Source: Escherichia phage a48. Taken from it: a DNA stretch of 64,000 bases. A program made the translations under genes and the position numbers. Position 1 is the first letter of the stretch. Each line of letters opens with the position of its first letter. The notes beneath the pieces are model-generated. The model saw only the letters and a list, made by a program, of their open reading frames with translations, ran no database searches and was not told the DNA's origin. Where the stretch lies: the sequence record OQ067375.1. One strand, written 5' to 3'. Below, piece after piece: positions 11,745 to 16,081 of this stretch.

Positions 11745-12215
11745 TTAATCATGTTTCCACACCCCATCGGTATTTGACCAAAGTCGCTGATTATCTGATC
11801 CTCGCCACAGCTTTTTAGTCGGAAGATTTTTCTCATACTTCCCATCAATAATAACATCAACATATTTAAGCATTTCTAGTTGTTTAATATCTTCAAACTT
11901 ATATCCTGTCCACAACCAAATGCTTTTATTGGGATAAAGATTTTTAATAGTTTGAACAATGCAATGAATAACATCTCGATTGTCAGGATAGAGAGGGTCT
12001 CCTCCAGTTATAGTCAATCCTTCTATATAATCATTATTCAAACATTCAATTAATTGTTCTAGTGTTTCACCAGTGAATGGAATACCATTTCTAGCATTCC
12101 ATGTTGATTTATTATAACACCCTTCACATTTATGCAAACAACCTGTAACGAAAAGAACGACCCTGCAACCAGGGCCATTAACAAAATCGCAAGGATAAAA
12201 TCTATCATAATTCAT
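11745..12215 (-). CDS. nrdG: anaerobic ribonucleotide reductase activating protein (radical SAM)
   Basis: 156 aa; Cys cluster CLHKCEGCYN; overlaps the nrdD stop by 4 nt. Confidence 0.88.
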   Translation of the reverse strand: MNYDRFYPCDFVNGPGCRVVLFVTGCLHKCEGCYNKSTWNARNGIPFTGETLEQLIECLNNDYIEGLTITGGDPLYPDNRDVIHCIVQTIKNLYPNKSIWLWTGYKFEDIKQLEMLKYVDVIIDGKYEKNLPTKKLWRGSDNQRLWSNTDGVWKHD

Positions 12216-14029
12216 TGGTGTTTAACCCTATGCATGATTTCTTTATTTTTACCGAGATTAAATCCGCGTTCGTTCGGATTTCCCAAATAACCACATGTTC
12301 TTCTTATGGTATTCATCTTTTTAGGATCAGTTTCTCCACAAATAGAACAAACAAATCCGTTTTCAGTAGGAGTCATTTCATGAGTACTTCCGCATGTAAA
12401 ACATTTATCTACTGGCATGTTAACGCCAAAATAATCTAAATGTTGTGCAGCATAATCCCATACGGCCTCAAGACCTTTTAAGTTATTTTTCATATCAGGA
12501 AGTTCAACATAAGAAATGTGACCACCTGTCGCAATGAAATGATATGGTGCTTCGCGGGAAATCTTTTCAAACGGAGTAATATTTTCTTCTACTGAAACAT
12601 GGAAACTGTTAGTGTACCAACCTTTATCGGTAACATCTTTTACACTTCCATATTTTTCTGTATCGAGTTTACAGAAGCGATAACAAAGGTTTTCAGCAGG
12701 AGTAGAATATAAACTAAAAGCGAATCCGGTTCTTTCAGTCCACTGTTTAAGATGAGCATTCATTTTAGTTAAAATTTCTCGTCCAATATCACGACCGACA
12801 AGAATATTCAATTCGTGAATACCAATGTATCCCAAAGACACTGAACTTCTACCGTTTTTAAATAACTCAATTATGTCGTCATCAGGTTTAAGACGAACCC
12901 CGAATGCACCTTCTTGGTAAAGAATAGGAGCAACAGTAGCTTTAACTCCTTTTAAGGAACTAATTCTACACATCAAAGCTTCAAAACACAAATCCATTCG
13001 TTCATTGAATAATTCAACAAATTTCTGTTCATTGAACTGTGTTCCAATATAAGAATCTAACGCGATGCGAGGAAGATTCAGTGTTACAACACCAAGATTA
13101 TTACGTCCATCAAGAATTTCATTACCAGTCGAATCTTTCCATACGCTCAAGAAACTACGGCAACCCATTGGAGAAACAGGAACAGATGAACCAGTGATAG
13201 CTTTATTGTTCTTAGCTGAAATAATATCAGGATACATCCTTTTGCTTGCACACTCTAGAGCAAGCTGCTTAATATCATAGTTCGGATCGTCTTTATAAAG
13301 ATTAACACCTTCTTCAACGAACATAACAAGCTTAGGGAAAATAGGAGTTATCCCATCACGACCAAGACCTTTAATACGATTTTTCAGAATTGCTTTCTGA
13401 ATCATTCGTTCAGTCCAGTCAGTTCCCGTACCAAATGTAATTGTTACAAAAGGCGTTTGTCCGTTTGAACTAAAGAGAGTATTTACTTCATATTCATAAG
13501 CTTGGAATGCATCGTATACGTCTTTTTCTGTTTTAGATTGAGCATAATTTAACGCATCAGCGATTTGCCATTTTTCTGCATCCTCAATATGTTTTGCATA
13601 GGTGCGTTTAACATAAGGAGAAAGTACTTTATCTACATTAGCAAAAGTCGTTCCGCCGTATTGGTGAGAAGCAACCTGTGCAGTAATTTGTGCCATAATT
13701 GCAGTAGCAACGCCAATTGATTTAGGAGTTTCAATCTGCGCATTACCTAGCTTAAATCCGTTCTCAAGCATTCCTTTTAAATCTACTAAACAGCAATTAG
13801 TAAATGGAAGAGCAGGGGAATAATCAATATCGTGGAAATGGATAATTCCGCTTTCATGCGCTTTCATAATAAAAGACGGGACCATATTTTTGGCAATGTG
13901 TTTAGACACAATACCAGCCATAAGGTCCCGTTGAGTTGGAAAAACACGAGAATCTTTATTAGCATTCTCGTTTAAAAGGTCTTTATTAGTTTTATGAATC
14001 AATCCTTCAATTTCTTTTTCAATTGTCAT
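12212..14029 (-). CDS. nrdD: anaerobic ribonucleoside-triphosphate reductase (glycyl radical enzyme), uninterrupted
   Basis: 605 aa continuous ORF; C-terminal Cys cluster and glycyl-radical region; no intron interruption. Confidence 0.92.
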   Translation of the reverse strand: MTIEKEIEGLIHKTNKDLLNENANKDSRVFPTQRDLMAGIVSKHIAKNMVPSFIMKAHESGIIHFHDIDYSPALPFTNCCLVDLKGMLENGFKLGNAQIETPKSIGVATAIMAQITAQVASHQYGGTTFANVDKVLSPYVKRTYAKHIEDAEKWQIADALNYAQSKTEKDVYDAFQAYEYEVNTLFSSNGQTPFVTITFGTGTDWTERMIQKAILKNRIKGLGRDGITPIFPKLVMFVEEGVNLYKDDPNYDIKQLALECASKRMYPDIISAKNNKAITGSSVPVSPMGCRSFLSVWKDSTGNEILDGRNNLGVVTLNLPRIALDSYIGTQFNEQKFVELFNERMDLCFEALMCRISSLKGVKATVAPILYQEGAFGVRLKPDDDIIELFKNGRSSVSLGYIGIHELNILVGRDIGREILTKMNAHLKQWTERTGFAFSLYSTPAENLCYRFCKLDTEKYGSVKDVTDKGWYTNSFHVSVEENITPFEKISREAPYHFIATGGHISYVELPDMKNNLKGLEAVWDYAAQHLDYFGVNMPVDKCFTCGSTHEMTPTENGFVCSICGETDPKKMNTIRRTCGYLGNPNERGFNLGKNKEIMHRVKHQ

Positions 14030-14499
14030 TTTAAACTCTTTCTAAGCTGCTTCTTAAATGAAGCTATTAACTGTGTTTTGGTGTCAGATTCATTATATTC
14101 AAATCCTCTTTGAAGCATCTCGGCCATCATTTCCTCTTTTCCTAAACGAGAAAATTCCTTTGATTTATCTCCAACAAAGTTAGGGTGAATATTATTTTGG
14201 GTGTAATCGGATTTTAAATAAGTAAGTAAATTTTCTAACCATTCAAGATAATCAACACCTTGACCCTTTAAGCCAGAACGATTAAATTTGTGCTTCATTT
14301 GACCTTCTGCAGCATTGCAGAGATTACAAAGCAATCCACGTACCTTTCCTGCTTTTAGTCCATTTAATTCATGGTCATGATCGAGGTGATTAGATTGAAC
14401 ATCAGGATTTAATTCTCGTTGGCAAATTAAGCATTTACCGTTTTGTGCATCATAAAATTTCTGTTTTTCTTCTTTGTATAATTTGCCAGTCAATAACAT
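14026..14499 (-). CDS. 49: endonuclease VII (Holliday junction resolvase) gp49
   Basis: 157 aa; zinc-binding CxxC...HLDHDH...CNLC motifs. Confidence 0.9.
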   Translation of the reverse strand: MLLTGKLYKEEKQKFYDAQNGKCLICQRELNPDVQSNHLDHDHELNGLKAGKVRGLLCNLCNAAEGQMKHKFNRSGLKGQGVDYLEWLENLLTYLKSDYTQNNIHPNFVGDKSKEFSRLGKEEMMAEMLQRGFEYNESDTKTQLIASFKKQLRKSLK

Positions 14500-14539
14500 A
14501 ATAAAACCCTTACCTTAAATAGATAAGGGTATTTATTAT

Positions 14540-14716
14540 TTAAGTATTGTAAAACATTCGATGCAATCGTTTATACTGTCGAATCATCTTTTTAGTAGGA
14601 CGAGAATAGGTTCCTACGCAAGTGGTCATATGAGGGTCCGTAGAATGTCCTTTAATAAAAAGTTTCCAAACCTTACCGCCATTTAACTTTTCAGTATAAA
14701 CCAATTCGGTTTTCAT
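14540..14716 (-). CDS. 58-aa ORF whose C-terminus is encoded by a duplicated segment
   Basis: Hand-translated MKTELVYTEKLNGGKVWKLF...KKMIRQYKRLHRMFYNT; its last ~15 codons are a copy of the pin 3' end. Confidence 0.3.
   Translation of the reverse strand: MKTELVYTEKLNGGKVWKLFIKGHSTDPHMTTCVGTYSRPTKKMIRQYKRLHRMFYNT
14542..14588. repeat. direct repeat copy 1 (~46 bp) of the pin 3' end
   Basis: aagtattgtaaaacattcgatgcaatcgtttatactgtcgaatcat recurs at 14757-14803 with 4 mismatches. Confidence 0.7.
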
Positions 14717-14752
14717 TAAAATGTCCTGTCAGAAAAAGAATTTTGAGTTTTT

Positions 14753-15238
14753 TCAAGTATTGTAAAACATTTGATGCAATCGCTTATATTGCCGAATCAT
14801 TTGGTCAGAAAAAGAAATTTGAGTTTCAAGCCATTCAATGTACTCTGCGGCAGCTTGCATTAAATTTCCTTCATAACCATCGTTATTTTCTTGTGCAGCT
14901 AATTTAGCTAATGCGTATGAAATACGTTCACCCTGAAATCCAGCTTTAGGTTTATGAATAACTTGATCAACTCGTTCTACGACCTCTTCAATTTCGCCAT
15001 TTTCTACTGATTCAGTATTCCACAAGCACCAATACGTAATTGGCTTATCGTAGATGTTAATAATCTTTCCATCAGAAAGTTCAATTTCAATAATTCCAGT
15101 ATCAGGTTCTATATCATCTTCGCATTCTTTTGCAAGTTCACGAACTTTAAAGACAGTACCTGCACTAAGTTCCGGCCAGTAATTACACAGCCCTTTATCA
15201 GCACGATTAATTCTAAACCACTTATCTACTGCAATCAT
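14753..15238 (-). CDS. pin: Pin-like protein (protease inhibitor position)
   Basis: 161 aa from the ATG at 15236-15238 (MIAVDKWF...); position between 49 and nrdC as in T4. Confidence 0.55.
   Translation of the reverse strand: MIAVDKWFRINRADKGLCNYWPELSAGTVFKVRELAKECEDDIEPDTGIIEIELSDGKIINIYDKPITYWCLWNTESVENGEIEEVVERVDQVIHKPKAGFQGERISYALAKLAAQENNDGYEGNLMQAAAEYIEWLETQISFSDQMIRQYKRLHQMFYNT
14757..14803. repeat. direct repeat copy 2 (pin C-terminal coding)
   Basis: Copy of 14542-14588; flanked on both sides by a second repeat unit cagaaaaagaa(t/a)tttgagttt at 14729-14751 and 14805-14827. Confidence 0.7.
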
Positions 15239-15361
15239 ATCCCATCTCCATATCAATTAAGTCATTTATCGTCGGTTCATTATATACTGTTTCTTCATCA
15301 GTGTAAACCGGTTCTTCCGGCTCTGGCTCTACAGTTTCCCATCTAGCCGCCCACCAAGGTT

Positions 15362-15682
15362 TTATAGCGTAATCCATTCTCGTACTGTCTGAGTTACTAC
15401 ACGTTCACGGGGCTCGACTAGTTCAACAGTCGGAACTGCATAATACCAGTCAGAATGATAAGAACCTGAGCGAGATTCATTTACAGCCACATGTACATTA
15501 TGTTTTGGACTAAAATAAACACACTGACGATATTGGCATTTACCATCTTGCACCCAGTCTTCTATTTCGACAGGTTTAAGATAATCGGAAAAATCGAAAT
15601 CATAGTTTTCCGAAAATGCATCATGGTCTTCAATGATTTCGCTCAGAACTGCATCAACATCTAATTTATTTTCAATAGTCAT
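15362..15682 (-). CDS. hypothetical protein (49.x)
   Basis: 106 aa acidic ORF. Confidence 0.5.
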   Translation of the reverse strand: MTIENKLDVDAVLSEIIEDHDAFSENYDFDFSDYLKPVEIEDWVQDGKCQYRQCVYFSPKHNVHVAVNESRSGSYHSDWYYAVPTVELVEPRERVVTQTVREWITL

Positions 15683-15692
15683 TTTTCACCAA

Positions 15693-15863
15693 TTAATTTC
15701 GCAATTTATTAAGTTCTTCATCATCAATCCAGGATTCTAGTCCTGATGGCAGGTCACATTCAATTTCCCAAAGAAGTTCTTCAATTTTCTGAAGACGATC
15801 TAGTTCTTCGGCTGGAATAGTAACCATTGACGAAGCTCGTGATACATTAATATCGTAAATCAT
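15693..15863 (-). CDS. small hypothetical protein
   Basis: 55-aa hand-found ORF MIYDINVSRASSMVTIPAEELDRLQKIEEL... Confidence 0.3.
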   Translation of the reverse strand: MIYDINVSRASSMVTIPAEELDRLQKIEELLWEIECDLPSGLESWIDDEELNKLRN

Positions 15864-15865
15864 AT

Positions 15866-16081
15866 TTACCCCAATTTAACCATACAATCGCCGTATTTCC
15901 ACTTAGAAATAGACTTTTCACCATTAGAATAATAAACTTCGAGTTTAGCACGATTATTTTTAATTTGAATAACCTTGGCTGTCATCAAAGTTCCATACCC
16001 ATAATAAACTGCAACTTCATCACCTACATATACCGCGCTTCCGCGGTAATCATGAATATAGTCAGTTCCTTCGAGCATCAT
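15866..16081 (-). CDS. small hypothetical protein
   Basis: 71 aa ORF overlapping the nrdC stop by 4 nt. Confidence 0.5.
   Translation of the reverse strand: MMLEGTDYIHDYRGSAVYVGDEVAVYYGYGTLMTAKVIQIKNNRAKLEVYYSNGEKSISKWKYGDCMVKLG

Follow-up and report, generated by a model that had tools for sequence, protein, structure and literature searches.

Direct repeats at the gene 49/pin junction of Escherichia phage a48: a probable scar of two recombination events between pin and a neighbouring DUF7279 gene

We analyzed the junction between gene 49 and pin in a 64,000-nucleotide stretch of DNA from Escherichia phage a48 (sequence record OQ067375.1; the whole stretch is called 'the window' below), in which two short sequences each occur twice and in which a 58-codon open reading frame (ORF58, a member of the DUF7279 family) and the pin gene end with nearly the same 15 residues. 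We think it probable that these repeats are the scar of two successive recombination events between two real genes: a deletion that fused the end of the DUF7279 gene in frame to pin, and an unequal exchange that would have placed the fused gene beside an intact copy of the DUF7279 gene. With less assurance, we favor an order of events in which the fused, T4-type arrangement came first and the window type arose afterwards by one unequal exchange.

Repeated ends of two genes

All features of the region lie on the minus strand, and in coding-strand order the locus reads pin (ending in B2, A2 and a stop), a run of A, B1, U, A1 and a stop, a hairpin, and gene 49. The parts that concern us are the following:

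14536..14587, minus strand: repeat copy A1, the last 15 codons and stop of ORF58 (14540-14587) plus 4 nucleotides beyond; F25-type allele (CGA CAG TAT AAA ... CAT CGA)
14540-14716, minus strand: ORF58, the intact DUF7279 gene (58 amino acids), ending MIRQYKRLHRMFYNT
14588..14727, minus strand: unique segment U, comprising ORF58 codons 1-43 (ATG 14716-14714), an AGGA and the stop of a putative relic of a 148-codon pin (pin148), TTTTAATG
14728..14750, minus strand: repeat copy B1, a non-coding, putative relic of the 3' end of ancestral pin148 (ACTCAAAATTCTTTTTCTGAC); F25-type allele
14748..14753, minus strand: A2/B1 junction, with six A in the coding strand (TGAAAAAACTC)
14749..14800, minus strand: repeat copy A2, the last 15 codons and stop of the 161-codon pin (pin161; 14753-14800), the captured tail; NBG2-type allele with a change of the fusion lineage, CAT CGA to CAT CAA
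14800..14801, minus strand: fusion point in pin, GAC CAA / ATG ATT, with ancestral pin to the left and former ORF58 codons 44-58 to the right
14804..14826, minus strand: repeat copy B2, the copy inside the gene, pin codons TQISFSD
14753..15238, minus strand: pin (T4-type PinA, 161 amino acids), ending MIRQYKRLHQMFYNT; its start is the ATG at 15238, not the mechanically listed TTG at 15256

In a repeat search, A1 and A2 (52 nucleotides) were 88% identical at an offset of 213, and B1 and B2 (23 nucleotides) differed by one mismatch at an offset of 76. Their ungapped scores (+1/-2) of 34 for A and 20 for B are far beyond chance, since 60 dinucleotide shuffles of positions 14000-15400 gave a maximum of 13 (mean 11.1, standard deviation 1.0). 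With up to 3 mismatches allowed, each core is present exactly twice in the window, where none is expected. A third candidate pair (14641-14662 and 14717-14738, 82% identical, offset 76) scored 10, below the shuffle mean, and was dismissed as chance. An earlier, sequence-only reading of this DNA had reported both repeats. Its 46-bp unit is real and the first copy (14542-14588) was correctly placed, with the second set 2 nucleotides too far to the right (a 47-nucleotide comparison gives 5 mismatches at offset 213 and 35 at the offset of 215 used there); its 22-bp unit is likewise real, at coordinates that were 1 nucleotide off and so yielded 2 mismatches. The 58-residue reading frame at 14540-14716 and the two peptide tails are as that reading described them, with 14 of the 15 terminal residues common to both proteins.

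ORF58 matches Pfam family DUF7279 (PF23945) with 62.7 bits (cutoff 24.5; residues 7-56 on positions 1-53 of the 53-position profile) and phrog_3272 with an E-value of 3.4e-34 (positions 1-58 of 59), the tail being included in both profiles. It belongs to the RB32 ORF078c / RB69ORF087c family, and tblastn matched it in 357 phage records. Because its pairwise ratios of non-synonymous to synonymous substitution (dN/dS) against six alleles are 0.08-0.26, ORF58 is evidently a real gene under purifying selection. Homologs were read base by base in RB69 and ST0 (Mosigvirus), JS98 (Dhakavirus), VR7 (Gaprivervirus), S16 (Gelderlandvirus) and RB33; those of Tequatrovirus, Mosigvirus, Dhakavirus, Gaprivervirus and Gelderlandvirus all carry the C-terminal sequence RPTK(K/R)xIRxxKRxHRxFYN. 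The gene lies directly upstream of gene 49 in RB69, JS98, VR7, ST0 and RB33; in S16 it is followed by other genes, not gene 49, with no adjacent pin, and ST0 has the DUF7279 gene and no pin. The best of five AlphaFold2 models of ORF58 (predicted local distance difference test score, pLDDT, 81.7; the other four, 52-63) is predicted to form three beta-strands and a C-terminal helix, and because that model places the helix at residues 42-56, the shared tail would correspond to the C-terminal helix of DUF7279. A fold search with the model against the PDB returned no match below an E-value of 0.27, and a literature search found no description of DUF7279, ORF078c or ORF087c. Some deposited records (H64, H83) name the 58-residue protein 'host protease inhibitor' or 'peptidase inhibitor domain-containing protein'; this label is likely a mis-annotation, probably derived from the 15-residue tail shared with T4 PinA.

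The pin product matches PF10465 (PinA, Inhibitor_I24) with 164.7 bits (cutoff 27) over residues 4-141, and also matches phrog_2167. The Pfam profile stops at residue 141, with the last 15 residues outside it, and residues 146-161 of the 161-residue protein (Pin161) instead match positions 43-58 of phrog_3272 (E-value 9e-4), a match that pin148 lacks. Outgroup Pin proteins end, just before the stop, in ...EYLERRLS (RB69-type), FSDEAF (the JS98 mini-Pin), FSDEVF (the VR7 mini-Pin), or SKSF or DRGF (distant homologs), endings that correspond to the ...SFSDRAF of the 148-residue Tequatrovirus Pin; a tail of the DUF7279 type was absent from every outgroup Pin examined. Because the tail is found in DUF7279 proteins of five genera and never in outgroup Pins, it is foreign to Pin: the 15 shared residues are evidently ancestral to DUF7279, and the T4-type Pin acquired them from its neighbour gene. 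In a structure model of Pin161 (overall pLDDT 70; tail 50-60), the tail prolongs the last helix with low confidence; given the low quality of the model, no more can be taken from it than this predicted continuation.

Two proposed recombination events

Tequatrovirus genomes display four arrangements at this locus, with gene 49 as the downstream neighbour and fixed right-hand anchor in every one:

Form (i), ancestral: pin148, its stop overlapping the ORF58 start (TAATG); NBG2, F25 and UFV09; roughly 80 records
Form (ii), T4-type: pin161 alone; T4, T2, G4498, PhiZZ30 and KK4; about 250 records
Form (iii), window type (RB32/RB33-type): pin161, relic B1 and ORF58; the window, RB33 and PYps5T; 112 records
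Form (iv): pin148 alone; T4_ev240 and 11B; roughly 50 records

The counts for forms (ii) and (iii) come from junction-specific searches (for form (iii), a 76-nucleotide junction query covered to at least 80%). Those for forms (i) and (iv) were estimated by subtraction and by sampling at even spacing, because the search tool merges nearby pieces and junction queries therefore give no exact count of these two forms. Tailed Pin is thus the majority form, in about 362 of about 493 Tequatrovirus records, and subtraction and sampling put the records with an untailed pin148 at approximately 130. An assembly artefact is ruled out by the 112 records that match the form (iii) junction query. The RB32/RB33 arrangement itself has long been present in public annotations, and DUF7279 is already a Pfam family. 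The sequence-only reading had suspected a footprint of illegitimate recombination at a site where relatives differ in gene content, and both suspicions hold on comparison: the repeat is not identically conserved and gene content is not invariant, with four architectures in Tequatrovirus and more in other genera.

The first event began from the ancestral Tequatrovirus form, in which pin148 (ending ...SFSDRAF) overlaps the start of the DUF7279 gene at TAATG and the hairpin and gene 49 come next. A 137-nucleotide deletion took away the end of pin (two codons and the stop) along with codons 1-43 of the DUF7279 gene, and brought the last 15 DUF7279 codons (the predicted C-terminal helix) into frame with pin, giving pin161. 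NBG2 reads GACCGA / GCATTTTAATG...AAAAAG / ATGATTCGG where T4 reads GACCGA / ATGATTCAG, a clean 137-nucleotide gap that T2 also shows against NBG2 and that in addition cancels the frame offset between pin and ORF58; on this comparison, fusion by deletion is evident. In a five-way alignment, segment U is the piece absent from T4-type genomes. The T4 tail DNA is that of the NBG2 ORF58 tail but for 2 nucleotides, and T4-type tails are NBG2-like at synonymous sites (CGG CAA TAT AAG). CAT CAA (HQ) stands in each of the eight Pin161 tails read, against CAT CGA (HR) in every ORF58 tail; because this change is common to the Pin161 tails and absent from those of ORF58, it argues for a single origin of the pin161 fusion. 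A separate deletion, between TTTTAAT and TTTTACAAT, leads from form (i) to form (iv).

The second event, in our view, was most likely an unequal recombination at the level of microhomology between a T4-type and an F25-type genome. A crossover or template switch in the A-run, near an imperfect CTTGAAA microhomology, would have joined the T4-type genome just past its pin161 stop to the F25-type genome just before the final 23 nucleotides of pin148. The product would be pin161, the A-run, the 23-nucleotide relic B1, a Shine-Dalgarno sequence, an intact DUF7279 gene and gene 49, with the 76-bp end of pin (B plus A) present twice and the body of the DUF7279 gene lying between B1 and A1. In the window, B2-A2 carries single-nucleotide polymorphisms (SNPs) of the T4 or NBG2 type and B1-U-A1 carries those of the F25 type (AAAATTC, GACAGG, CGA CAG TAT AAA); because its left and right parts differ in this way, the allele appears to be a hybrid of two parents. 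The arrangement has the features of a partial tandem duplication: its repeats are direct and agree in order and orientation, it has one novel junction, and parents of both types (T4 and F25) are extant. RB33, PYps5T and the window, the three genomes in which that junction (given above) was read, have it in identical form.

Following the second event, the DUF7279 gene of the window allele would keep its own Shine-Dalgarno sequence (AGGA at 14724-14727, 7 nucleotides ahead of the ATG, within U and directly downstream of B1) and would lose its stop-start coupling to pin. As DNA, the repeats have no dedicated function, and as direct repeats they would make the allele metastable: recombination between A2 and A1 would remove 213 bp and regenerate a T4-type genome, and recombination between B2 and B1 would remove 76 bp and regenerate the ancestral type. 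KK4, a T4-type genome, has A2-type SNPs on its 5' side together with the A1-type 3' end of RB33 and PYps5T (TAA stop, GGGTTTT), and thus looks like a product of A2 x A1 collapse.

Several observations weigh against this account. The CTTGAAA sequence is found at the breakpoints of both parents, but the product has six A, not three or four, at the A2/B1 junction, where a simple CTTGAAA crossover would leave three; because of these six A, the exchange may have been out of register or followed by slippage. The 137-nucleotide deletion shows no microhomology in present-day sequences. For the order of events we rely on parsimony and on SNP patterns in just 13 genomes that were read base by base, and the TAA of KK4 could also be due to ordinary exchange with a genome of the window type. 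Finally, T-even genomes recombine so freely that flanking haplotypes are uninformative: junction type and the alleles of the pin body (VERVDQVIHKPKA versus VERTNQVVQKPKA) vary independently, and parentage could not be traced by this means.

Alternative readings

The window type might instead have arisen within one genome, by tandem duplication of B-U-A in an ancestral genome and subsequent loss of 137 nucleotides from the first U, with T4-types as later A2 x A1 collapses. We regard this route as unlikely. Collapse does appear to occur (KK4), and the permuted, split pin of JS98 (see below) makes tandem duplication at the locus plausible; the route nonetheless takes three events and hence more steps, and its tandem intermediate has not been seen, although no targeted search for it was made. 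T4, T2 and G4498 have TGA and a downstream AAATAAT, like the ancestral types and not like the TAA of the window-type A1. Two parents account more easily for the distinct ORF58 alleles of A1 (F25-like) and A2 (NBG2-like), and T4-type tails are more diverse (CGA..CAG, CAA ATG, CAA AAG) than the window-type tails read.

Two further proposals concern why the fused forms persist. DUF7279 and PinA might be functionally linked (for example, by both acting on host Lon or on another common target), with the basic helix as a transferable module and with the captures, the fusion and the retention of both genes reflecting selection; we consider such a link doubtful. A little less plausible still is the more limited proposal that a basic C-terminal helix benefits Pin (through Lon binding or stability, for instance) and that selection maintains both its capture and the coexistence of the two genes. 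A tail has been captured twice independently (in the T4-type and in contig L013, below), a full DUF7279::Pin fusion is found in two metagenomes, tailed Pin is the majority form, and the PinA that has been studied biochemically is the tailed 161-residue T4 protein. Against selection, Pin tails show mostly non-synonymous changes in which conserved arginines are lost (two positions with R to Q, besides M to K and H to N), while changes in ORF58 tails are mostly synonymous, the counts being too small for a test. The low confidence of the tail in the Pin161 model, the estimated 130 or so records that manage with pin148, and the one-in-three chance that a random deletion keeps the frame likewise speak against it.

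It is very improbable that the repeats mark the insertion or excision of a mobile cassette, as the sequence-only reading had also suggested. Homing endonucleases do occur nearby in relatives: the T4 nrdD gene contains an intron with the homing endonuclease I-TevII, and VR7 has a MobE-like HNH gene between 49.1 and 49.3. The interval from 49 to 49.1, however, contains no endonuclease or transposase gene in any of the four architectures (the forms examined hold pin, DUF7279 and pin fragments, and VR7 has one ORF without a Pfam match), nrdD of the window is a single uninterrupted ORF without an intron, what is repeated is coding DNA from the genes on either side, and each repeat is present only twice in 64 kb. 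A related possibility, covered by the same low estimate, is the PeSL cassette, a roughly 70-bp unit of sigma-70 early promoter plus stem-loop that is present in many dispersed copies beside variable ORFs and through which modular shuffling has been documented in T4-like phages (PMC2839356, PMC4122927). The two situations are alike in that a small accessory gene lies between direct repeats and is lost when these recombine (Arbiol et al. 2010, PMC2839356; Comeau et al. 2014), and they differ in that the repeats here are coding DNA of neighbouring genes. No sigma-70-like promoter or stem-loop was found inside 14536-14587, 14728-14750, 14749-14800 or 14804-14826 (the only hairpin, at 14506-14530, is not repeated), and a PeSL cassette was rejected on this ground and on the presence of only two copies of each repeat.

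The suggestion that duplication of the pin 3' end created a chimeric 58-codon ORF with a borrowed Pin C-terminus is the least credible of all, for although the DNA is duplicated and 14 of 15 terminal residues agree, tailed ORF58 homologs exist in five genera, including genomes without an adjacent pin (ST0, S16), form a family in Pfam and PHROGs under purifying selection, and already by comparison with untailed outgroup Pins are refuted as its product, ORF58 being instead the older, conserved gene that owned the shared residues ancestrally.

The wider locus and its meaning

Similar events are visible in other T4-like phages and mark the locus as unstable in general. In a Mosigvirus-like contig (L013, 2329-2926, Logan SRR20302901), an RB69-type pin ends ...ERR / FHRDFYNVY: the last 9 codons of an RB69ORF087c-type DUF7279 gene have been captured by deletion between two copies of ACGTTT, and a second, intact DUF7279 gene lies upstream of pin. 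Its sequence marks this capture as evidently independent of the T4-type one. In two ENA metagenomes (L014, 2501-3076, and L015, 1510-2085), a single 191-residue ORF (P0037), identical as protein in both samples, joins DUF7279 to pin by loss of the DUF7279 stop and read-through (...NFYRGYD-MNIS...). JS98 (L007, 1029-1504) has its Pin split over two genes in permuted order, with the C-domain before the N-domain: a 57-residue gene product matching positions 88-136 of the PinA profile precedes one of 100 residues matching 3-74, both just over the Pfam cutoff. This order suggests an old tandem pin duplication that was trimmed at both ends.

The neighbouring features downstream of ORF58 in the window are as follows:

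12212-14029, minus strand: nrdD, 605 amino acids, no intron
14026..14499, minus strand: ORF of gene 49 (endonuclease VII, 157 amino acids), annotated as endonuclease VII in all related records
14506-14530, minus strand: hairpin ACCCTTATCTATTTAAGGTAAGGGT, a terminator-like match just upstream of the gene 49 ATG
14530-14537, minus strand: late-promoter-like sequence AATAAATA, which with the hairpin forms an element at 14506..14537

The hairpin and AATAAATA are identical in sequence in T4, T2, NBG2, F25, ev240, RB69, ST0, L013 and L014. Their combined element, which we take to have a regulatory role for gene 49, is single rather than repeated, and every deletion at the locus ends before reaching it. 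Directly before AATAAATA and past the ORF58 stop, at 14538-14545, the window has ACTTAAATAATAAA where RB33 and PYps5T have ACTTAAAAATAATAAA, its A-run being 2 nucleotides shorter. A scan of 13500-16000 against Rfam (E-values up to 1) found nothing besides a sub-threshold match to ohsC RNA (14498-14568, minus strand; 29.7 bits against a gathering score of 50; E-value 0.074) that overlaps the hairpin and the end of ORF58 and is probably due to chance.

On the other side, a 49.1-like gene and further small ORFs extend from pin to nrdC. Inside the 49.1-like ORF, just upstream of pin, lies a sigma-70-like promoter (15279-15307, minus strand; TTTACA-17-TATAAT, 11 of 12 positions) that appears to match an annotated promoter in the 49.1-like gene of NBG2 (L002, 2380-2408); from its sequence and position it is probably the early promoter of pin and ORF58. 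The small ORFs themselves (15222-16081, minus strand; 49.1-, 49.2- and 49.3-like) vary in number and size among Tequatrovirus genomes that are otherwise 95% identical, and this variability, seen against L001-L004 and L011, goes past the 49/pin junction.

The mechanism is ordinary short-homology deletion and duplication, and the locus is a fresh example of modest interest. In the classical T4 rII deletion r1589, rIIA is joined to rIIB; there, as proposed here, a deletion across a gene boundary drops a stop and a start and joins two frames in phase. The r1589 deletion is a laboratory mutant, whereas the fusion of pin to the DUF7279 tail is fixed in most natural Tequatrovirus genomes. Illegitimate, short-homology deletion and duplication have been described in hyperplastic regions of T4-like phages and invoked for an exchange of g49.2/49.3 nearby in phage PST (Comeau et al. 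2014, PMC4122927, citing Albertini et al. 1982). As in that system, genes are gained and lost at very short or no homology in the non-essential gene 49-nrdC region, and parental and product forms coexist in nature; unlike it, the present case involves a partial tandem duplication across a gene boundary and an earlier deletion giving an in-frame gene fusion. The 49/pin interval is not described in that article (PMC4122927). Our literature search found neither a description of the RB32-type allele as a composite of fused and ancestral forms nor any mention of a DUF7279 origin for the T4 PinA C-terminus or of any pin fusion.

The parental, fused, re-duplicated and collapsed forms all appear to survive in sequenced phages, and so provide a compact natural series; since the junctions are readable at base level, the locus would be convenient for measuring short-repeat recombination in T-even phages. 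DUF7279 emerges as a conserved, repeatedly lost small gene and a candidate for an accessory function, and annotators should treat 'protease inhibitor' labels on ORF58 with caution.

For pin, the finding revises the reading and origin of the C-terminus of a well-known protein. T4 PinA reportedly inhibits the E. coli Lon protease (Skorupski et al. 1988; Hilliard et al. 1998), and its biochemistry (Lon ATPase, inhibition of proteolysis) is said to be known only for the T4 protein, the tailed 161-residue form, of which the window pin product is a close ortholog in the same form. Residues 147-161 of T4 PinA lie outside the PinA family domain and, as the comparison shows, derive from DUF7279, the gene next door. 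The PinA studied in all Lon-inhibition biochemistry thus ends in a relic of another protein's C-terminal helix, and many natural relatives have a 148-residue Pin without those residues. If the two proteins were indeed functionally linked, part of the measured activity of T4 PinA would reside in a helix borrowed from another protein.

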